Notes: generated by a model from the sequence alone, not told the origin. A DNA stretch of 64,000 nucleotides from an uncultured Candidatus Saccharibacteria bacterium (GCA_964584265.1 CAZOZI010000001.1:75691-139690); one strand, 5' to 3'; positions 19,979 through 33,096 are shown, counted from the stretch's first letter. Numbers and translations are program-made.

Positions 19979-20263
19979 ATGCGATTCTACAATCTACTCG
20001 AGCTTGCACCTTCTAACAGTAACGGCTGGGCTGAAGTTTACAGAGCATTGGAGTCTATTAATGCAGGCCACATTACTGTGTGGGATGTAACTGCCGGTGA
20101 GACCTTAGGTGTGTTAGCGCTTAAGACAGGAGCGATTATGGCCACAGTAGTTGTAGAAAGAGATGGTATAAGTCTAGAAAGTGGCGGCCGGTTATGGAAA
20201 CCCACTCTACCGCTCGTGGATATTGCACCGCTGAAGTTTCTAGACAACAGGGGTAAGGTGTAG
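19979..20263 (+). CDS. Hypothetical protein (94 aa) inserted between nusG and rplK
   Basis: The ORF starts 8 nt after the nusG stop, on the same strand. No recognisable motif. Confidence 0.45.
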   Translation: MRFYNLLELAPSNSNGWAEVYRALESINAGHITVWDVTAGETLGVLALKTGAIMATVVVERDGISLESGGRLWKPTLPLVDIAPLKFLDNRGKV

Positions 20264-20303: not shown

Positions 20304-20735
20304 ATGGCAGAAAAAGTAGTTAAAGCAAATTTGAAGATGAAAATCCGTGGTGGTCAAGCCAATGCAGCACCGCCGGTTGGTAGTACCCTTGGCCAATACG
20401 GTGTGAATATGATGGATTTTATTAATCCATTTAATGAGCAGACGAAAGATCGTATGGGTCAGGAAGTTACAGTGCATATAAGCATTTACGATGACCGCAG
20501 CATGACCTGGCGTGTGGTTGGCACACCAACAGATGACTTGATCCGTAAAGCACTTGGCATAGACAAAGGTTCGGGACGACCCAATACTGAGAAATTAGAT
20601 AAAAAGCTCAGTAAAAGCCAGTTACGTGAAATTGCCGAAGCCAAAGCAGTTGACTCTAACACTGATAATGTTGAAGCTGTTATGAAGCAAGTAGCTGGCA
20701 CTGCTCGCAGTATGGGTATAGAGGTAGAGGGATAA
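20304..20735 (+). CDS. rplK: 50S ribosomal protein L11
   Basis: 143 aa. GGQANAAPPVGSTLGQYGVNMMDFINPFN is the L11 N-domain signature. Confidence 0.95.
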   Translation: MAEKVVKANLKMKIRGGQANAAPPVGSTLGQYGVNMMDFINPFNEQTKDRMGQEVTVHISIYDDRSMTWRVVGTPTDDLIRKALGIDKGSGRPNTEKLDKKLSKSQLREIAEAKAVDSNTDNVEAVMKQVAGTARSMGIEVEG

Positions 20736-21011
20736 GTGAGAATCGCAGATATGCCAAACGAACCTAGATTTGAGAGATCAATAGACGGCCATCACACGCA
20801 ACCGGCTAGTACTTTAAGTAGGCCAGAGCGCATTCGGCGCTACTTAACACAAGAAGAAACGAGATGGAATGCACCTTTTGGTGCAGTGATAGCGAGTGTT
20901 GTTGTGTTGATGATTATAGAGAAAACTGGAGTTGATGGTATTGCAAATACTGCTGCGCAAGTCCTTGATTCTACGTTGTCAAAAATAACCGAACTTGATA
21001 GAAGAGAATAA
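20736..21011 (+). CDS. Hypothetical small membrane protein (91 aa) between rplK and rplA
   Basis: The GTG start abuts the rplK TAA. One hydrophobic segment, FGAVIASVVVLMII. No homology recognised. Confidence 0.4.
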   Translation: MRIADMPNEPRFERSIDGHHTQPASTLSRPERIRRYLTQEETRWNAPFGAVIASVVVLMIIEKTGVDGIANTAAQVLDSTLSKITELDRRE

Positions 21012-21077
21012 GTTTAACTTGTGGGACCCGACGCTGTCAGCATGACAGCCGGGGTTTGCACCACAAAGGAGATAGTT

Positions 21078-22097
21078 ATGGCAGAAGCCAAGAAGACGAC
21101 CGCAAAAATTAAGACTAAAAAAGTCGCTAAAAATATTAAGACGAAAGGAAAAGAGATAAAAGATGGGACTATTCAAATCGATGATAAAGCTAAGGTTCAA
21201 GCAAGTAGCCAAGACGAAGAAGTAAAAACTACAGCCAAACCTAAAGTAACAACCACCAAGCAGCCAACCGCAAAAGCTGGTAAACGAAGTACTAAAGCTG
21301 TAAAAGAAGTCGAGGAAAAACGAGCTAAAGAAGAACGTAAAACGCATGCAAAAGAGGAAGAAGTTGCACACAAACCAAAACATCCTGAAAAACCACCACG
21401 CTCTAAGTTAGAGCGCAGAAGCAAAAAATACCGCGAAGCCGCAAAACAAATTGAGGCCGACAAAGACTACACGCTGGAAGACGCGTTAGCCTTAGCCGTT
21501 AAAACAAGCCCAACTAAGTTTGACGCTACTGTAGAGTTACATATAAACCTCGCAGTTGACCCGAAACAGGCAGATCAAAATGTGCGTGGCACCGTAGTTC
21601 TGCCCGCGGGTACCGGTAAAGCCAGCCGGGTAGCTGTTGTTGCAGAAGCTGATGACGCGAAGAAAGCCAAAACAGCTGGTGCCGATGTAGTTGGTAGCGA
21701 TGATATACTAGCCCAGCTTGATAAAGAGAAGCTGGACTTTGATGTGCTTATTGCCACGCCAGCAATGATGGCTCGCCTCGGCAAGTATGCTCGCGTACTT
21801 GGGCCAAAAGGCCTTATGCCCAATCCTAAAAGCGGCACAGTGACAAACGACGTCGTTAAAGCCGTTACAGAAGCCAAGGCCGGTAGAGTTGAGTATAGAG
21901 TAGATACCGCCGGCATCGTTCATGTCGGCATTGGTAAGGTTAGCTTTGGAGCTGCCAAATTGAACCAAAACGCACAAGCCATTTTCACCAACCTAAAAAC
22001 TCATAAGCCAGCCTCTGTTAAGGGCGCGCTCATCATGCGCGCTTATGTAACGACAAGCATGGGCCCAAGCATTTCGTTGACCCTGAGCAGCGTGTAG
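21078..22097 (+). CDS. rplA: 50S ribosomal protein L1 with ~110-aa Lys/Glu-rich N-terminal extension
   Basis: ATG at 21078 with AAGGAG at 21066-21071. The L1 core runs from about aa 112 (RRSKKYREAAKQIEADKDYTLEDAL ... VRGTVVLPAGTGK ... MPNPKSGTV). 339 aa total against about 230 typical. Confidence 0.9.
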   Translation: MAEAKKTTAKIKTKKVAKNIKTKGKEIKDGTIQIDDKAKVQASSQDEEVKTTAKPKVTTTKQPTAKAGKRSTKAVKEVEEKRAKEERKTHAKEEEVAHKPKHPEKPPRSKLERRSKKYREAAKQIEADKDYTLEDALALAVKTSPTKFDATVELHINLAVDPKQADQNVRGTVVLPAGTGKASRVAVVAEADDAKKAKTAGADVVGSDDILAQLDKEKLDFDVLIATPAMMARLGKYARVLGPKGLMPNPKSGTVTNDVVKAVTEAKAGRVEYRVDTAGIVHVGIGKVSFGAAKLNQNAQAIFTNLKTHKPASVKGALIMRAYVTTSMGPSISLTLSSV

Positions 22098-22107
22098 AAT
22101 AACTCTA

Positions 22108-22740
22108 ATGAACCGAACAAAAGGCCACGTTATAGCAATTGATGGGCCAGACGGTGTTGGTAAAACGACACAAGTCAGTCTACTAGCTGAATATCTTAGG
22201 CAAAAGGGACGAATTGTCCACACTACCCGGCACTCTGGTGGAACTTTGATTGGCGAAGGGCTTCGTAAAGTATCATTGTCTGACGTACCAAGGCCAACTG
22301 AAACAGATCTCTATATTTCATTGGCCATGGGCGTAGCCTTGGCTGAGGACGTGAATAAACGAAGAGAAATGGGCGAGATAATCATTATCGACCGCAGCCC
22401 ATTGGCAATCATCGCTTATCAAGGCTATGGTGGCCAGCTAGAAGACAAACAAAAGACCTTTGAGGCCGCCGAGATGCTTCTTAAAGCTTACAAATTGGAT
22501 AAGCTGATATTTTTGAACGCGCCGCAGTCTGTTTTAAATCAGCGGCGTCACTCACGGGGTACCAGTGATTATTTTGAACAAAAGAATATTGCCTATCACG
22601 AACGCGTTAGGAGAGGTTATGATGCTGGGCTGGCATTCTTAAAAAAGCACTCAGAAATTGGGCTGGAGGTAGCAACTATCGACGCTTCTCCAGACATCGC
22701 GAACATTCATGAACAGATTCTTCACTCAATAGAACTGTAA
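22108..22740 (+). CDS. tmk: Thymidylate kinase
   Basis: 210 aa. P-loop IAIDGPDGVGKTTQVSLLAEYL and the IIIDRSPLAIIAYQGYGG region are typical of dTMP kinase. Confidence 0.9.
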   Translation: MNRTKGHVIAIDGPDGVGKTTQVSLLAEYLRQKGRIVHTTRHSGGTLIGEGLRKVSLSDVPRPTETDLYISLAMGVALAEDVNKRREMGEIIIIDRSPLAIIAYQGYGGQLEDKQKTFEAAEMLLKAYKLDKLIFLNAPQSVLNQRRHSRGTSDYFEQKNIAYHERVRRGYDAGLAFLKKHSEIGLEVATIDASPDIANIHEQILHSIEL

Positions 22741-22809
22741 ATTTTCACCACTTAAACTTGTGCTACTGTCAAACACTTTCGTACAATATATAAAACGAAT
22801 GGGGGAGCA

Positions 22810-23520
22810 GTGTCCGTTTACAGTAATATACAGATAAAACAGGCTATAAAAGAAGGCCATATTGTATTTTACCCGTATGTCGCCAAGCATATTGCCGGTA
22901 GCAGCGTAGATGTTACGCTGGGCGATTGGTTTTACCGGACAGAGAGGCCAAGTGAAGGCGGGTTTTACAACCCCTTTGATGAATCGGCCGTCAAGCAATA
23001 CTTTGGGGGTGGTCCATACCAGGCCGAGATCCACAAGGAATGGGCAGCGAAACATGGCCGCAAGTTATTTAAAAACATTCCGCCATCCCAGCGCATTATC
23101 GTAATGCGCCCTGGAGAGCGTGTACTGGCCCACACACACGAGTTTATTGGCATCAAAGCACCAGGTACGAGCACTATGCAGGCTCGTAGCACCTGGGGCC
23201 GCAACGGCGTATCAGTCTGTTTGGATGCTGGTTGGGGTGACCCGGGCTACATAAATCGTTGGACTATGGAGATCTACAATTTGAACCAACATGAAAGTGT
23301 AGTTCTGCCAGTCGGTGAGCGCATTGCCCAACTGGTTTTTTATGAAACCGGGCCTGTTGCCGATGAGTACAAAAAGCTGAGCGGCAAGTACCAGGCTACC
23401 GATAGCCAAGACCTGAAGAAATTGATTGCCAGCTGGTCGCCTGAGCAAATGCTACCCAGGGCTTACAAAGACAAGCGCCGTAAGCCAATAATCATAAAAG
23501 GGCTTAAAAGAGGCTTATGA
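22810..23520 (+). CDS. dcd: dCTP deaminase / dUTPase-superfamily protein
   Basis: 236 aa, GTG start with GGGGGAG SD. N-terminus IKQAIKEGHIVFYPY...GSSVDVTLG is typical of Dcd. Whether it is bifunctional (dUMP-forming) cannot be judged here. Confidence 0.8.
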   Translation: MSVYSNIQIKQAIKEGHIVFYPYVAKHIAGSSVDVTLGDWFYRTERPSEGGFYNPFDESAVKQYFGGGPYQAEIHKEWAAKHGRKLFKNIPPSQRIIVMRPGERVLAHTHEFIGIKAPGTSTMQARSTWGRNGVSVCLDAGWGDPGYINRWTMEIYNLNQHESVVLPVGERIAQLVFYETGPVADEYKKLSGKYQATDSQDLKKLIASWSPEQMLPRAYKDKRRKPIIIKGLKRGL

Positions 23521-25889
23521 AGATAAAACACTACGAAACTAGTGAGCCAGTGCTGGAAACACCGACTAAGCAAGGTGTTTTTATCGCCCTTGAAGGCACT
23601 GACGGTTCGGGCAAGGGGACACAATTCAAGCTTTTAACCGAAAAACTGCAGTCCGAAGGTTATGAGGTCGCTGCCTTTGACTTTCCTCAGTATGATCAAG
23701 CTTCAAGCTTTTTTGTAAAAGAATACTTAAATGCCAAATATGGCACCTCTGATGAAGTTGGACCTTACACTGCTTCGCTGTTCTTTGCCCTAGACCGCTA
23801 TCAAGCTGCACCAGCCATTCGCCGTGCACTTGATGAAGGCAAGGTTGTGCTTACAAATCGCTATACAGGCTCAAACATGGCTCACCAAGGCACTAAGTTC
23901 GATCATCCAGAAGAACGGCGTGGTTTCTTTATATGGTTGGATAATCTTGAATTTCAAATGTTGCACATACCAAGGCCTGACAAGAGTTTTATCCTGCGAG
24001 TACCTGCAGATATTGCGCAAAGATTGGTGGATAAGAAAGAAGCAAGAAACTATACGGACAAGAAGCGTGATATACACGAAGCAGACCTTAAGCACCTAAA
24101 ACTGTCTGTTGAGGTATACAACGCATTGTCAGAACTATTTCCAAGGGATTTCTTTGAAATTGATTGTGTAAGCAATGACGAACTTCTGAGCATAGAAGAG
24201 GTACAAAATAAGTTATGGCAAACTATTAAGCCGTTATTGCCGTCAAAACCTAATAAACAGAGCACAAAGGCTGAAAAAACCGCCATAATCACCAATCCGT
24301 ATGTAACACGCACGGATAAAGGCTGGGAAATAACAAGCGAAGGCCGACAGTTCTTAGATGGCATCGTCACTGACTCGACCGGGGATGTCTACGCTTTTAA
24401 TGAAAAGCTAGGAACAATGACTATTGCTGCAGCGATGGCTCGATTAAGTCGCCGTGGTGATGATATGCGTATAACCATTCTGGACGAGTTTGCCACAACG
24501 GCAGGTAAGGACGAAAAGCTCCTGCAACGCGTTATTACGGCGTACGGTGATGATTCTGTGCAGCAATTGGCCGGACAGCACATTGTAGTAGAAGGCGCCT
24601 CTAACTTACTAACCAAAAAGTTGGAGTGGGGTCGGCTGGCCGCCTATCTAGAGCAATCAACCCGTTATATCTACTTTGATCAAAAAGATAATAACGGCAA
24701 CTACCGCTACTTTACGCCACCACAGTTAAATGCACAGACCAAAAAACAATACTGCCAAACCATGGATCAGATATTTGATCTCTACTCCAAGATGGTCCGG
24801 GATCTTTCGAAGTATATTCGTGATAGTTCATCAGTTCCATTGGAGGAGCGCGACGGCGCTTGGCAAGGGGCTACGCGCGCGCAGGCCTGTGACGCGATTC
24901 GACCTGTTTTGCCCGTAGCCACCAAGGCTACAGTGGGCATTTATGGTTCGGGACAAGCCATAGAAAGCCTTATTATGCACTTGTTAAGTGATGAGCTGCC
25001 AGAAGCACAAGAAACTGGTCAAAAAATGCTTACAGAAGCTCGTAAGGTCATCGGTACGTTCTTGGAGCGAGCTGACAAGCCTGATCGCGGTGGTGCCACA
25101 ATTGCCTATTTTGCGAATACACGTCACAGCGTCAAAAAATTGGCCAAAGACTACTTACCTGATGCGCACAGTAGCGAGGCAACTGCAGTAAAGCTTACTA
25201 GCGTATGGCCGCGTAACGAACTTGAGCTTGTGCCAGACATGCTCTATGAGCACAGCAATTTATCACTAGAAGAGATACAAGAACAGGTCGAAAACTGGCC
25301 ATACGACAAGAAAATGGCCGTGTTTCAGGCCTATATGGGTGAACGGCTCAACCGTCGCCACAAGCCGGGCCGAGCACTGGAAAAAGCTCATTATAGCTGG
25401 GACTTACTTTGTGATTACGGCATTTTTCGCGATCTGCACCGGCACCGCATGGTCGATGACCTTGAGTGGCAACTACTCACACCACGCTATGGCTATGAAA
25501 TACCACAGCTGGCCGATGAAGCCGGTCTAAGCGAACTCTTTGAAGAGTGTTTTGACCTGAGCCTGAAGCTCTATAGCCAGCTGCAAGCTGGCGGTTATGA
25601 ACTTGAAGCCCAATATGCGACTCTGCTTGGCCACAGAATGCGCTGGAAGGTTACCTATAATGCTCGTGAAGCCTTCCATCTACACGAACTTAGAACAAGT
25701 CCGCAGGGCCACCCGGGATACCGCAAACTTGTCCAGCAAATGCACGAAAAGGTTGCTGAGGTGCATCCTATGCTGGCAGATGCCATGATTTTCGTGAATA
25801 AAGGGGAGGACCCGGAGTTAACGCGTTTAGCTGCTGAGCGTTACACTCAATTTAAACTGCAGCAAATCGACGACAAAGGCAACAACTAA
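23517..25889 (+). CDS. Fusion protein: N-terminal thymidylate kinase + long C-terminal ThyX-like (flavin-dependent thymidylate synthase) region
   Basis: 790 aa. Residues ~20-230 form a Tmk module (IALEGTDGSGKGTQFKLL ... TNRYTGSNMAHQG). The C-terminal ~550 aa carries ThyX-like signatures (AAAMARLSRRGDDMR; YGIFRDLHRHRMVD). ATGA overlap with dcd. Confidence 0.75.
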   Translation: MKIKHYETSEPVLETPTKQGVFIALEGTDGSGKGTQFKLLTEKLQSEGYEVAAFDFPQYDQASSFFVKEYLNAKYGTSDEVGPYTASLFFALDRYQAAPAIRRALDEGKVVLTNRYTGSNMAHQGTKFDHPEERRGFFIWLDNLEFQMLHIPRPDKSFILRVPADIAQRLVDKKEARNYTDKKRDIHEADLKHLKLSVEVYNALSELFPRDFFEIDCVSNDELLSIEEVQNKLWQTIKPLLPSKPNKQSTKAEKTAIITNPYVTRTDKGWEITSEGRQFLDGIVTDSTGDVYAFNEKLGTMTIAAAMARLSRRGDDMRITILDEFATTAGKDEKLLQRVITAYGDDSVQQLAGQHIVVEGASNLLTKKLEWGRLAAYLEQSTRYIYFDQKDNNGNYRYFTPPQLNAQTKKQYCQTMDQIFDLYSKMVRDLSKYIRDSSSVPLEERDGAWQGATRAQACDAIRPVLPVATKATVGIYGSGQAIESLIMHLLSDELPEAQETGQKMLTEARKVIGTFLERADKPDRGGATIAYFANTRHSVKKLAKDYLPDAHSSEATAVKLTSVWPRNELELVPDMLYEHSNLSLEEIQEQVENWPYDKKMAVFQAYMGERLNRRHKPGRALEKAHYSWDLLCDYGIFRDLHRHRMVDDLEWQLLTPRYGYEIPQLADEAGLSELFEECFDLSLKLYSQLQAGGYELEAQYATLLGHRMRWKVTYNAREAFHLHELRTSPQGHPGYRKLVQQMHEKVAEVHPMLADAMIFVNKGEDPELTRLAAERYTQFKLQQIDDKGNN

Positions 25890-26143
25890 ATATCTTCTCG
25901 TGGCCTTACTCTTGCAATAACTGTATCTTCGCTGCGCCCAAAGGGGCTTACTTCAACTGTAACAAAATGGAGCAATGGGCCAAGCTGTGTTTGAAGCGAG
26001 ACAATTTCTGGAACAACGTCAGTAATATAGCCATGCGCAATAATCATATCGCCGTCAGCTTTTCGTATTTGTCCGAGTAGCGCTGCAGAATTCATATGCT
26101 GTTGTTCGTCGCCACCATGTAGCGTGTCTGGTGATATAGCCAT
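25886..26143 (-). CDS. Hypothetical protein (85 aa)
   Basis: ATG at 26143 preceded by GAGGAAG (26152-26146). The 3' end overlaps the thyX-fusion stop by 4 nt (convergent). No homology recognised. Confidence 0.5.
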   Translation of the reverse strand: MAISPDTLHGGDEQQHMNSAALLGQIRKADGDMIIAHGYITDVVPEIVSLQTQLGPLLHFVTVEVSPFGRSEDTVIARVRPREDI

Positions 26144-26157
26144 TACTTCCTCTTGAC

Positions 26158-26190
26158 TTAAAAAACCGGCTCTTTTGGTTGGAGCCGGTT
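26158..26190 (-). terminator. Rho-independent terminator/attenuator inside the 5' leader of the 85-aa ORF
   Basis: Minus strand AACCGGCUC-CAACCAAAA-GAGCCGGUU followed by U7. It lies only about 5 nt upstream of the SD of the ORF starting at 26143. Confidence 0.65.
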
Positions 26191-26320
26191 TTGTTTATGT
26201 TGCTTTTGACTTGTGCTAACACGGGCTCCAATCTATTTTGCGGCAATAAATACCATGCCGTAAGTGCGGCAGATAGTATGCTTGGCAATAAGATTGGATA
26301 GTTGTGTTATCACGAAAACT
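26191..26320 (-). promoter_or_regulatory. Structured leader (long imperfect hairpin plus antiterminator segment), riboswitch/attenuator-like
   Basis: P1 is CCAAUCU (26297-26291) / AGAUUGG (26234-26228), closing helices UUGC/GCAA, AUACUA/UGGUAU and UGCCG/CGGCA. UUGGAGCC (26231-26224) is complementary to GGCUCCAA (26186-26179) in the terminator. Confidence 0.45.
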
Positions 26321-26383: not shown

Positions 26384-26521
26384 GGCTTTAAACGCATTGA
26401 AGCAATTAGGACTCCTCCTCGGCCTTACAGGGCTGTGCTTCAGTATGGTTGAAGCCTGAGCGTTTAAACGCCTTAGCACAGCCCAAGCAACAGGCTTCAC
26501 CCAAGAAGTCTGTTTTAATTT
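26384..26521 (+). promoter_or_regulatory. Structured leader with mutually exclusive helices upstream of the 79-aa ORF
   Basis: 10-bp helix GGGCUGUGCU (26430-26439) / AGCACAGCCC (26475-26484). Hairpin GCUUCA/UGAAGC (26437-26455). Palindrome GCGUUUAAACGC (26460-26471). UGAAGCCUG (26450-26458) pairs alternatively with CAGGCUUCA (26491-26499). Weak terminator-like GGCUUC/GAAGUC plus a U-rich tract (26493-26521). Confidence 0.35.
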
Positions 26522-26534
26522 AAAGGAGAAAGTG

Positions 26535-26771
26535 ATGTCTGAAAGTAACGAAGTTTATGCAAGAACTGTAGGTGAAGGTGATGATAGTGGTATTTATATA
26601 GTCCAAACTCCTGAAGGAATTTCAGTTGAGTACCAACCCCATAAAACATGCCCTGCTAAATCGATGCAAATATTCAGGGAGGTAGAAGTTCATCCCGTAC
26701 CTGATGCAGGTCAAGTAGAAGCCACTATTATAGTGAAGGTTCCGGTCGTAGATCGTAATCTGCCAGCTTGA
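26535..26771 (+). CDS. Hypothetical protein (78 aa)
   Basis: AAGGAG at 26523-26528, 6 nt before the ATG at 26535 (a GTG at 26532 is also in frame). No homology recognised. Confidence 0.5.
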   Translation: MSESNEVYARTVGEGDDSGIYIVQTPEGISVEYQPHKTCPAKSMQIFREVEVHPVPDAGQVEATIIVKVPVVDRNLPA

Positions 26772-26794
26772 CTTAACAGAGATAGTCATATAAT
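26768..26794 (+). promoter_or_regulatory. Putative promoter for rplJ-rplL
   Basis: TTGACT (26768-26773) and TATAAT (26789-26794), both near-consensus, but the spacer is only 15 nt. Confidence 0.35.
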
Positions 26795-26800
26795 ATCTAT

Positions 26801-26972
26801 CTGTTACCAAAGACAGTGACGGCCGAGAGGTTTGATAATGTCACCGAGGTGCATACAATTCATTTTGTTTTGTGAGCACAACTGAAGCTTCTGGTAACAG
26901 GAGCTTTTTGGTTACAAGACAGTAATTTTGGTCGAGAATTCCTGTCTCAACTCATAAAAGGAGAAGTCAAAC
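26801..26972 (+). promoter_or_regulatory. rplJ (L10) 5' leader with internal terminator-like hairpin
   Basis: About 170 nt untranslated leader. Hairpin GUGAC...GUCAC (26816-26844 region). AGCUUCU-GGUAAC-AGGAGCU followed by UUUU (26886-26909) looks like an attenuator. AAAGGAG SD lies before the ATG at 26973. Confidence 0.5.
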
Positions 26973-27503
26973 ATGGCTTTGACCAAAGAAAAGAAGCATG
27001 AAGTCGTTGATGAAGTCAGCAAGTTGCTGAGCGACTCTAAAATGACAGTGCTGGCCCAATATCAGGGAACCCCTGTGAAGGCTATGCAAACCTTACGGCA
27101 TGACGCCAAAGCAGGTGGTACGGTTGTAAAAGTAGTTAAGAACCGCTTGGTTTTGCAAGCTATTAAGCAATCTGAGGTTTTTAAAGACGTGGATGCGAAT
27201 GTATTTAATGGCATGTTACTCTACGCTTTTAACGCAAACGATGAAGTTGCACCAGCCCAGGTGCTGGCTGCTTTTGCCAAAACTCAACCATCACTACAGT
27301 TCGTTGGAGCACTGACAGCTGAAGGCGAGCTACTAAGCGCTGACGATGTTAAAGCATTAGCTAGCTTGCCGCCCAAAGAACAGTTGCGCGGTCAAGTAGT
27401 CGGAATTTTGGCAGCACCACTGAGCGGTTTTGTTAGCGTGTTATCCGGCAATATACGCGGAGTTCTGAGCGTCTTGCAAGCCCGTAGTGAAGCAATAAGT
27501 TAA
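26973..27503 (+). CDS. rplJ: 50S ribosomal protein L10
   Basis: 176 aa. Typical L10 N-terminus [19 protein letters not shown]...[13 protein letters not shown]. Precedes rplL. Confidence 0.95.
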
Positions 27504-28188: not shown

Positions 28189-28698
28189 ATGGCAGATGTA
28201 CCAGATAAGCAGATAAAACGCCTTCGGGCGCTGATTGAAGAAGCCGAGACTAGTTTAGCGGCAGCTAAGGAGTTGCTGGTAAGTTTGGTTGGCGAAGATT
28301 CACAAGATGTCGCCAGCACTAAAGACGAGAATATCGGCAAGGTTATTGAAGGCGTCTTCGATGGCCAGAACATGGTCGGATCAGACAGTAAGACCTACCC
28401 AGTACCAGCCAATTATGCAAGTAAGTCCAAGCTAGTCCAAGGCGACATACTCAAACTCACTATTGCTGAGGATGGGGCATTTCTGTACAAGCAAATCGGC
28501 CCGATCCCACGCAAACAAGTTGTCGGTGTACTGGAACAAAAAGATGGCCATTACTTTGTGCACGTTAATGATAAACAATACCGTGTTTTGCTTGCCAGCG
28601 TAACCTATTTCAAGGCCAAACCAGGCGATCAGGTCAGTGTCAACGTTCCGGAAGACGATGACAAAGCCGAGTGGGCCGCCCTTGAAGCCGCCCTCTAA
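28189..28698 (+). CDS. Hypothetical protein (169 aa; coiled N-terminus, beta-rich C-terminus)
   Basis: ORF with a GAGAGA-type SD. No motif I can name. Confidence 0.55.
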   Translation: MADVPDKQIKRLRALIEEAETSLAAAKELLVSLVGEDSQDVASTKDENIGKVIEGVFDGQNMVGSDSKTYPVPANYASKSKLVQGDILKLTIAEDGAFLYKQIGPIPRKQVVGVLEQKDGHYFVHVNDKQYRVLLASVTYFKAKPGDQVSVNVPEDDDKAEWAALEAAL

Positions 28699-31902: not shown

Positions 31903-33096
31903 ATGTCTAAGCTTATGAAACGTCTTCGTCGTTTTATGATGGAAGGTTGGCAGCCGATATTGTTATACGGAATAGCAATAGCTGGGCTGGTATTACTATT
32001 TATGTATAAAATTGGCAGCCTGCCAGCCGGTTTGAGCCAGAATGAGATTCAAGCGCTTGGCTCTGCTCAGACATGGCAAGCGGTGCTTAATAACCCGTTG
32101 TATGCACCACATAAAGTGCTAATATTGACACTTCAAACAATTGGCTTTCATGACAAGGCTGTCTTGCGCGGCGTTAGTGCATGCTGGGCACTTATTACCA
32201 CTGGGTTGTTTTTTAGCATTTTGAAACGCTGGTACCCTAAACGCATTGCCATCTTAGGCACACTGCTATTTACTACCTCTACCTGGTATTTGATCACGTC
32301 CCGTCTTTTGACACCAGAAATTTTACAATCCGGTGTGGTTATTTTGCTAGCTGTCGGTGGTTGGTTGCGTTATAGCCATGCACGCATTAGCCCGGTTTTG
32401 TTAGCAGTCGGTTCGGCGGCCATATTATTCTATATCCCCGGAATGCTCTGGTTACTTATTGGTGCAGCTATTTGGCAATGGCCGAATATCAAAATAGCCC
32501 TAAAGGAATCTTCGGTACTCATTGCTTTCTCACTAACACTTCTTTTTTTAATACTTATAGGACCTCTGCTTTTTGCTATCGTCAGGAACCCTTCACTAGG
32601 ACGTGAACTAGTTGGTCTGCCATCAAGCATGCCTTCTTTACAGCAAGTCATAAAGGGTTTTGTGGACATTCCTCTTGCCTTATTTTTGCGAGCGCCGCTC
32701 GATCCAGTCCATTGGCTAGGGCACTTACCGCTGCTTGATATCTTTAGCACGGTCATGTTTGGGCTTGGTTTGTATAGTTTTTACTTTCAACTTCGCCTTG
32801 ACCGCGCCAAATTATTATTTGGGGCTGGGTTTATCATAAGTGTTCTAATTGCGTTGAGCGGAACACTAACCCTGACTATGCTATTGCCGTTAGTCTACAT
32901 TGTCGTCGCTGCCGGCTTAAGCTTATTCCTGAGACAATGGCTGACTGTATTCCCACGCAACCCGTTAGCGAGAACGCTAGGATATAGCCTGCTCATTATT
33001 GTTGTTTTGGCAGCTTGTTTTTATCAAGTTAGTCGCTATTATGTTGCGTGGCAACATACCCCGGCGACAAAACAAGCCTACAGCCATACACTTTAG
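31903..33096 (+). CDS. Polytopic membrane protein (possible GT-C-type glycosyltransferase)
   Basis: 397 aa with about 10 hydrophobic segments. The family assignment is a guess from topology only. Confidence 0.4.
   Translation: MSKLMKRLRRFMMEGWQPILLYGIAIAGLVLLFMYKIGSLPAGLSQNEIQALGSAQTWQAVLNNPLYAPHKVLILTLQTIGFHDKAVLRGVSACWALITTGLFFSILKRWYPKRIAILGTLLFTTSTWYLITSRLLTPEILQSGVVILLAVGGWLRYSHARISPVLLAVGSAAILFYIPGMLWLLIGAAIWQWPNIKIALKESSVLIAFSLTLLFLILIGPLLFAIVRNPSLGRELVGLPSSMPSLQQVIKGFVDIPLALFLRAPLDPVHWLGHLPLLDIFSTVMFGLGLYSFYFQLRLDRAKLLFGAGFIISVLIALSGTLTLTMLLPLVYIVVAAGLSLFLRQWLTVFPRNPLARTLGYSLLIIVVLAACFYQVSRYYVAWQHTPATKQAYSHTL

Follow-up and report, generated by a model that had tools for sequence, protein, structure and literature searches.

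Why does a cluster of thymidylate genes with two thymidylate kinase (Tmk) modules, one of them joined to a long protein resembling the flavin-dependent thymidylate synthase ThyX, stand between the ribosomal protein genes rplA and rplJ? The question was raised by a 64,000-nucleotide (nt) stretch of DNA from an uncultured Candidatus Saccharibacteria bacterium (GCA_964584265.1 CAZOZI010000001.1:75691-139690), hereafter the window, in which three same-strand open reading frames (ORFs), tmkA, a dcd-like gene and a gene for a fusion protein of 790 amino acids (aa), fill positions 22108-25889 (+), between rplA and the L10 leader and rplJ. We conclude, with a probability of roughly 0.75, that the cluster is a thymidine-nucleotide operon, the last product of which is a tandem ThyX with divided labour carrying a Tmk on the same chain. 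The enzymes are of known kinds, of which the fusion and the subfunctionalised form of tandem ThyX represent variants. The genes and domains of the cluster are as follows.

22108-22740 (+), tmkA, stand-alone Tmk of 210 aa, matched by PF02223 and TIGR00041
22810-23520 (+), dcd-like gene, 236 aa, matched by PF22769
23517-25889 (+), tmk::thyX-thyX fusion gene, 790 aa, the start overlapping the dcd stop
23565-24236 (+), Tmk module of the fusion, Mycobacterium tuberculosis type, aa 17-240, PF02223 match
24228-24302 (+), flexible Lys/Pro-rich linker from Tmk to ThyX, aa 238-262
24414-25061 (+), ThyX half 1, aa ~300-515, Thy1 E 4e-16 when scanned alone
25212-25841 (+), ThyX half 2, aa ~566-775, Thy1 E 2e-16 when scanned alone

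In the proposed pathway, the Dcd-family enzyme would convert deoxycytidine triphosphate (dCTP) to deoxyuridine triphosphate (dUTP), or directly to the monophosphate (dUMP) if the enzyme is bifunctional. The ThyX part would then methylate dUMP to thymidine monophosphate (dTMP) with flavin adenine dinucleotide (FAD), reduced nicotinamide adenine dinucleotide phosphate (NADPH) and methylene-tetrahydrofolate, and the Tmk module, on its flexible linker of ~20 residues, would phosphorylate dTMP to the diphosphate (dTDP). A kinetic benefit, such as local hand-over of dTMP, might follow from this arrangement. The genes are tightly packed, with 10 nt between the L1 stop and the tmkA start, 69 nt between tmkA and dcd, and an ATGA at 23517-23520 in which the dcd stop overlaps the fusion start. 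Thus, the three packed genes described in an earlier note on this DNA were borne out by the ORFs, the identities assigned with hidden Markov models (HMMs) and the ATGA overlap.

A kinase fused to two ThyX domains

First, the fusion is one protein with both kinds of domain, as the earlier note had claimed: the Pfam HMMs match Tmk (PF02223) once, at aa 25-216 (E 2e-19 to 2e-20), and ThyX (PF02511, Thy1) twice, as separate matches in the C-terminal part, with E 6e-33 for Thy1 on the whole protein. The survey for Tmk-ThyX fusions that the note had proposed returned more than 120 full-length homologues among 5.8 billion proteins searched (765-798 aa, 70-76% identity, both Pfam domains in all), which are named either "FAD-dependent thymidylate synthase" (NCBI; Candidatus Saccharibacteria/Saccharimonadales) or "thymidylate kinase/thymidylate synthase ThyX" (JGI). 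In addition, 18 genome loci from reference genomes, all of Saccharibacteria, were compared, and the whole region of the two ThyX domains (ThyXX) is a single unbroken ORF in 16 of them. Because these homologues are independent and full-length and the 16 genome loci are intact, neither a frameshift nor an assembly error can explain the long ORF. Thus, of the two outcomes that the earlier note had named as fatal, a C-terminal region that ThyX HMMs fail to detect and a pair of separate genes joined by error, neither was found. No description of a tandem ThyX or of a Tmk-ThyX fusion was found in the searchable literature, where absence is no proof of absence; the fusion architecture is real and common in Saccharibacteria, databased under generic names and apparently unstudied. 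The linker between the parts has a predicted local distance difference test score (pLDDT) below 50 at aa 246-258, and its columns are poorly conserved in a 49-sequence alignment.

Second, the N-terminal module is a Tmk of the M. tuberculosis type. It scores 124 bits with NF005923, the best match in the PDB is 1g3u (7e-17), and in a model with pLDDT ~90 the top 50 Foldseek matches are all thymidylate kinases, with template modelling (TM) scores of 0.78-0.88. The P-loop EGTDGSGKGT reported earlier was located at aa 26-35, and the module also keeps FPQY (aa 56-59), F90 and R94 as contacts to thymine, and a K/R-rich LID (aa 173-190). The module has the FP(R/Q)Y, F-x3-R and S-N motifs and the long basic LID in common with M. 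tuberculosis Tmk (1g3u; NF005923), but differs in N-R-Y instead of D-R-Y, in His123 for Tyr103, in the score (124 versus 193 bits) and in being fused rather than free-standing. A second, canonical-bacterial module type ("LEGPEGVGKTTQ...REPDSQSD...DRNY") was observed in L009 (5992-8322), L010 (4795-7128), L011 (5956-8322), L013 (5251-7629) and L017 (5182-7599), and the ThyXX behind it is 69-73% identical to that of the window, with 69-75% identity across all loci. The comparison points to a kinase module that was either replaced on a conserved ThyXX body or acquired twice; because two unrelated Tmk types are joined to the same body, selection appears to favour the linkage of kinase and ThyXX.

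Third, the C-terminal ~550 aa consist of two ThyX domains in tandem, because each half matches Thy1 alone: residues 241-528 match at aa ~302-511 (4e-16) and residues 529-790 at aa ~609-751 (2e-16), both exceeding the 24.8-bit threshold of Pfam and with E-values far beyond chance. Foldseek with the full-length fusion model returned kinases only, and a ThyXX-only AlphaFold model was therefore made. In this model (mean pLDDT 81.3, predicted TM score (pTM) 0.80), the top 50 PDB matches are all ThyX, with TM scores of 0.6-0.7 on the target; these are single-domain chains of 190-220 residues, each covering one half, and no solved structure with the tandem architecture is among them. Single-sequence PDB searches with each half found no ThyX, and profiles of half 1 and half 2 matched M. 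tuberculosis ThyX 3gwc (2e-10) and PBCV-1 ThyX 4fzb (8e-4), respectively. When the halves were compared with each other, 89-sequence profiles gave a co-linear alignment of 164 columns (E 6e-4, probability 28%), pairing WGR with RHR and GSGQ with YNAR, and 14-sequence profiles gave a non-significant, misaligned result. Because only deep profiles align the halves, the duplication is ancient and its direct signal weak. The internal duplication that the earlier note had suspected is supported by the two Thy1 domains, the co-linear halves, the model with pTM 0.80 matching ThyX, and phage tandem ThyX proteins that align over ~500 columns. Of the two ThyX signatures then named, FRDLHRHRM was located at aa 637-645, and ARLSRR (aa 308-313) does not serve as one, since it corresponds to an N-terminal portion of the Thy1 profile and the RHR position of half 1 is W371-G372-R373.

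Tandem ThyX was also observed in other lineages. An exhaustive HMMER search of 1.84 billion cluster representatives with ThyXX gave 731 at E<=1e-30, the best 150 of which are mostly stand-alone proteins of 510-580 aa, with a minority that are longer and have an N-terminal extension. The members with names belong to Candidatus Microgenomates, to Acidimicrobiia/Actinomycetota, where the tandem form is very abundant (8000 matches at E<=1e-10), and to a DPANN archaeon. In a viral structure search (BFVD), a 491-aa protein of Microcystis phage LMM01 named "thymidylate synthase" (A0A7D4) and A0A6B7EUB9 (461 aa) aligned with the ThyXX model over ~500 columns that span both halves; with these cyanophage matches, the duplicated architecture occurs in viruses too. 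The stand-alone tandem proteins (~460-570 aa; Acidimicrobiia/Actinomycetota, Microgenomates, the DPANN archaeon and cyanophage Ma-LMM01) have the same two domains and the same complementary motifs as the window fusion but lack the Tmk module. The ThyX of Chlamydia trachomatis (CT632, ~529 aa) may be of the tandem type as well. An unfused tmk was sought as a fusion precursor beside the tandem thyX of Acidimicrobiia and was not found, and neither dcd nor ribosomal genes adjoin the gene there. An M20-family peptidase gene does adjoin it, and in several Saccharibacteria such a gene occupies the interval from the fusion to rplJ (in all, the gene was noted at L022/L023 4043-4987, L024 9427-10497 and L019/L020 8428-11358 and in L008, L016 and L017); the window has neither this gene nor a remnant of it. 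A folate-related role for the peptidase (carboxypeptidase G/AbgAB-like) is conceivable.

The dcd-like gene supplies the remaining part of the proposed pathway, and its assignment to the Dcd/dUTPase family stands (PF22769, E 6e-33). In each of the 14 loci covering the region, it lies next to the fusion gene. Its product shares the Pfam family and the Ser/Arg/Glu-type motifs with Escherichia coli Dcd and with the Dcd-Dut enzymes of Methanocaldococcus jannaschii and M. tuberculosis: ARSTWGRNG (aa 125-133) and WTMEIYN (aa 151-157) align to GRSSVGRLG and TLELFN of 4xjc, the best PDB match (2e-13; bifunctional M. jannaschii 1ogh, 6e-6). It differs from known Dcd in an insertion of ~50 residues at aa ~40-90 and in a TIGR02274 score of 84.7 bits, below the cut-off of 92.8. 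The matches include monofunctional enzymes (4xjc, 1xs1) as well as bifunctional, dUMP-forming ones (1ogh, 2qxx).

Catalytic residues divided between the halves

The labour of the two halves was assessed from the residue pattern in 129 family members, 49 close homologues, and alignments of Saccharibacteria and Acidimicrobiia. In half 1, the FAD-binding RHR is degenerate, with W371-G372-R373 at the canonical position, and Q480 and L489 substitute for Arg190 and Arg199 of M. tuberculosis ThyX. The same half keeps S381-T-R383-Y384 exactly seven residues after WGR, equivalent to Ser105, Arg107 and Tyr108 of the M. tuberculosis enzyme, together with S347 (Ser71) and R462 within R-x-x-L-P (Arg172). 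In half 2, R642-H643-R644 and H721 are kept, as are R717 and R726, nine residues apart like Arg190 and Arg199. There, RHR is followed after seven residues by L-L-T-P-R, without Ser or Arg at the canonical spacing, and an invariant Tyr700 occupies the position of Arg172. This complementary pattern is invariant in the alignment of 129 family members, in the 49 close homologues, and in Saccharibacteria and Acidimicrobiia alike at ~40% identity between the two; of 83 stand-alone tandem representatives, 81 have it intact.

The pattern can be read against the canonical homotetrameric ThyX/FDTS (Thermotoga maritima TM0449, M. tuberculosis Rv2754c and PBCV-1 A674R), which has the same fold and Pfam family as each half. 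According to the account of the canonical enzyme in PMC6514825, each active site is built from three subunits (consistent with PMC9571937 and PMC3498832): RHR of subunit A binds FAD, Arg95 and Arg199 of A bind dUMP, Ser71 and Arg190 of subunit B bind the FAD phosphates, and subunit C contributes Arg87, Ser105, Arg107 and the lid residue Tyr108. In the tandem form, half 2 would give the FAD and dUMP residues of subunit A (Arg642-His643-Arg644 and Arg726, plus Arg717), and half 1 would give the dUMP loop and lid of subunit C (Ser381, Arg383 and Tyr384, plus Arg462). Since only half 2 can act as A and only half 1 as C, two complete sites per dimer are predicted: two chains would assemble into a pseudo-tetramer in which each pairing of a half 2 with a half 1 gives one complete site and the reciprocal site is dead, leaving two dead sites, against four complete ones in the canonical tetramer. 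The catalytic residues are in total those of the canonical enzyme (RHR, Ser-x-Arg-Tyr and the equivalents of Arg172, Arg190 and Arg199), and the FAD, NADPH and methylene-tetrahydrofolate chemistry is presumably common to both forms. The tandem form differs in its two strongly diverged copies fused on one chain, in the splitting of the residues between them, and, in the window, in the N-terminal kinase.

Several points weigh against the reading of the cluster as a thymidine-nucleotide operon with a working tandem ThyX. First, the motif RHR-x7-S-x-R-Y is complete within neither half, and the full set is found only across both; the role of subunit B is ambiguous, with the equivalent of Ser71 (S347) in half 1 and that of Arg190 (R717) in half 2. 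Second, the homology signal of half versus half is weak, and in the full-length model the loops of the active site are predicted with low pLDDT. Third, the fusion falls short of the equivalog cut-offs of NCBIfam (TIGR02170, 49.4 versus 87.9; TIGR00041, 67.9 versus 83.25; NF005923, 124 versus 193), and N114-R115-Y116 replaces DRY in the fused Tmk, the Asn being invariant in close homologues. Fourth, no folate-cycle gene was found in the scanned parts of the window. Finally, ThyX activity is not universal to the architecture, because many fused relatives have decayed, as detailed below.

ThyX is an antibacterial target and, to our knowledge, its mechanism is known from symmetric homotetramers only. 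The tandem ThyX might therefore be regarded as a natural "heterodimer" experiment on which residues come from which subunit, with half the active sites predicted. A precedent for such a joining of enzymes is DHFR-TS of protozoa and plants, in which two consecutive enzymes of thymidylate metabolism are also located on one polypeptide; those proteins (ThyA and DHFR) are unrelated to the present ones, and they join dTMP synthesis to folate recycling rather than to dTMP phosphorylation. Channelling is documented for DHFR-TS and is only hypothesised for the Tmk-ThyX fusion, which would be a second natural example of consecutive thymidylate-pathway steps on one chain.

The stand-alone kinase, decayed relatives and competing readings

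If the fusion carries its own Tmk, what is tmkA for? One answer, that the two Tmk modules are plain dTMP kinases redundant with each other, has several results in its favour. The tmkA product matches PF02223 with E 4e-23 and TIGR00041 with 87.2 bits, above the cut-off of 83.25; in the PDB it matches genuine Tmks best, led by Aquifex Tmk 2pbr (1e-19), and it is called "dTMP kinase" in the sources. The residues of its clade, which comprises 109 proteins with every organism-named member in Saccharibacteria, point elsewhere. Those for phosphotransfer are kept (P-loop Lys and D-R each in 107 of 107, LID Arg in 102 of 107), whereas those around the base are not. The thymine-contacting Arg is replaced by Gly75 in tmkA and in the family by Gly (35), His (33) or Gln (13), Arg being retained only in nine distant canonical Tmks; DRS takes the place of DR[F/Y/H] in 94 of 107, and REPGGT has become R[A/H/S]SGGT. 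Because base-contact residues are replaced in ~98 members of the clade while phosphotransfer residues are invariant, a changed specificity is suggested, and tmkA is most likely not a duplicate dTMP kinase but an accessory one whose nucleotide preference differs. The distribution also argues against redundancy, since most fusion-bearing genomes lack tmkA, which occurs in only three of the syntenic loci examined (its clade is also represented at L012 4375-4884 and L018 4614-5195), and in others the slot holds an unrelated protein. Redundancy of the two kinases is thus doubtful, although it deserves to be taken seriously. Of the two Tmk modules in the earlier note, both belong to the Tmk family, but tmkA, without the thymine-contacting Arg clade-wide, is probably not a plain second dTMP kinase.

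In loci without tmkA, the slot between rplA and dcd is usually occupied by an unrelated P-loop protein of ~250 aa with no Pfam match on record and the motif MI(V/L)LG(F/I)TGPIGHGK(S/T)T. This protein is encoded at L001 4444-5199, L003 2692-3426, L004 4413-5171, L005 3590-4333, L013 1953-2702 and L024 4470-5222. In L003, a large minus-strand ORF lies between it and dcd.

A second alternative is that the ThyX part of the window protein is a dead scaffold, with only the Tmk working and dTMP coming from salvage. Decay of this kind is evident in relatives: 38 of 42 fused cluster representatives lack key residues in both halves while the Tmk is well conserved, a proportion that is not a genome frequency because cluster counts over-represent fast-evolving forms. 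One such protein, P0136 (L019/L020 6001-8253), with only a "weak" Thy1 match, is located in the same place upstream of rplJ-rplL and is preceded by genes for dCMP (deoxycytidine monophosphate) deaminase and DHFR, which replace dcd. The arrangement suggests that a ThyA-type route took over and that ThyX then decayed, with the kinase kept; related lineages appear to have swapped the synthase and yet retained the fused kinase. The incomplete canonical motif in each half of the window protein could be read in the same way. However, all key ThyX residues are intact in the window protein (W371-G-R373, S381-T-R-Y384, R462, R642-H-R644, R717, H721 and R726), in its 49 closest homologues and in 16 of 16 genome loci, an intact dcd is translationally coupled upstream, and ThyXX evolves slowly even across loci with unrelated Tmk modules. 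We therefore consider a dead scaffold in the window improbable.

From the division of residues, the two module types and the decayed relatives, a broader scheme may be put forward, tentatively and at rather less than even odds. The tandem ThyX might be an obligate asymmetric enzyme, a dimer with two working sites in which half 1 is the substrate-loop donor and half 2 the flavin-site donor; it might have captured Tmk at least twice in Saccharibacteria, so that dTMP would be phosphorylated where it is made, and the dead ThyX body might have been retained as a kinase scaffold after the switch to dCMP deaminase and DHFR (ThyA-type).

It is very improbable that the tandem ThyX methylates another substrate, such as uridine monophosphate or dCMP in the manner of the ThyX-like enzymes of nucleoside antibiotics, with the cluster making a modified nucleotide. 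The divergence from crystallised ThyX, of which single-sequence searches of the halves find none, and the altered base pocket of the neighbouring tmkA would fit such a role. On the other hand, the alignment retains the uracil and phosphate contacts R383, Y384, R462 and R726, the fused kinase retains the thymine-specific F90 and R94, the upstream gene yields deoxyuridine nucleotides, and the cluster belongs to the clade-wide core beside ribosomal and replication genes rather than to a secondary-metabolite locus. An artefactual joining of separate tmk and thyX genes is hardly credible, even though tandem thyX without Tmk is known in other lineages, including close relatives in the Candidate Phyla Radiation at 52-57% identity, since the full-length homologues come from various assemblies and sources, the ORF is unbroken in 16 genome loci and positions within the junction region are conserved.

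Setting within the ribosomal genes

The reading as a thymidine-nucleotide operon also bears on why the cluster stands where it does, for which the flanking features are relevant.

20304-20735 (+), rplK (L11), the ORF that opens the upstream ribosomal operon, which the cluster follows
21021-22097 (+), rplA (L1), PF00687 at aa 161-349, E 2e-58
26162-26192 (+), terminator-like hairpin, 270 nt past the fusion stop, with a 12-pair stem including 6 G-C pairs
26789-26919 (+), ribosomal protein L10 leader RF00557, full-length model match, 47.2 bits versus a gathering score of 44
26973-27503 (+), rplJ (L10), PF00466 E 8e-19, first gene of the downstream ribosomal operon

The rplK gene is 69-80% identical in 12 related loci, each time upstream of L1, and L11 Pfam domains are on record for the orthologue in L024. 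In all syntenic loci, the order is secE-nusG-rplK-rplA-(variable slot)-dcd-fusion-(variable 0.7-4.7 kb)-rplJ-rplL-orf169-dnaX, and rplJ is kept downstream of the fusion in every locus that reaches so far. A recent insertion or an origin from a mobile element was considered and rejected, the GC content being unremarkable and the synteny clade-wide; the comparison indicates an old, fixed arrangement that is standard across Saccharibacteria. Thus, the position between rplA and rplJ given in the earlier note holds, whereas its interpretation as an insertion does not, since the order is the clade standard and rplJL retains its own leader. Saccharibacteria are ultrasmall epibionts that are generally regarded as host-dependent for nucleotides. 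Judging from the conserved operon, many of them would retain a dCTP-to-dTDP pathway of their own, encoded in the midst of genes for ribosomal proteins and replication.

The L10 leader passes the Rfam gathering threshold and ends 54 nt upstream of rplJ, with promoter-like sites at 26768-26859. The spacer from the fusion to this leader is ~0.9 kb and contains only the hairpins at 26162-26192 and 26489-26514. The former, which is a consensus match with a weak T-tail, probably ends the rplKA-tmkA-dcd-fusion transcript. Because of the leader and the terminator-like hairpin, the cluster resembles an extension of the rplK-rplA transcript, with rplJ-rplL under separate control; it is probably co-transcribed with rplK and rplA, on a transcript that ends before the separately regulated rplJ-rplL. 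Four small spacer ORFs, at 25886-26143 (-), 26532-26771 (+), 19979-20263 (+) and 20736-21011 (+), were rejected as genes; tblastn found no counterpart for them in 24 related loci, and the two that were tested had no Pfam match.

Some observations concern the neighbouring genes. The L1 ORF has a Lys/Glu/Ala-rich N-terminal extension of ~140 residues ahead of the L1 domain, which is common to relatives (L1 of 301-345 aa), and the true start of rplA is probably the ATG at 21078, where "MAEAKK" of the relatives begins. The L7/L12 ORF (27518-28033) encodes 171 aa, of which the acidic, Ala-rich N-terminal ~45 residues are unmatched in relatives; these align from aa 32-49 onward, and the L12 of L024 has 125 aa, which points to a genuine extension or else to an ORF that was called too long. 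Between dnaB and recR, a 397-aa ORF at 31903-33096 (+) gave no Pfam match at E<=1e-5. Finally, a 169-aa ORF at 28189-28698, likewise with no Pfam match, is located in the rplL-dnaX interval of every related locus that reaches it, with 79-84% identity, and appears to encode a clade-specific conserved protein.

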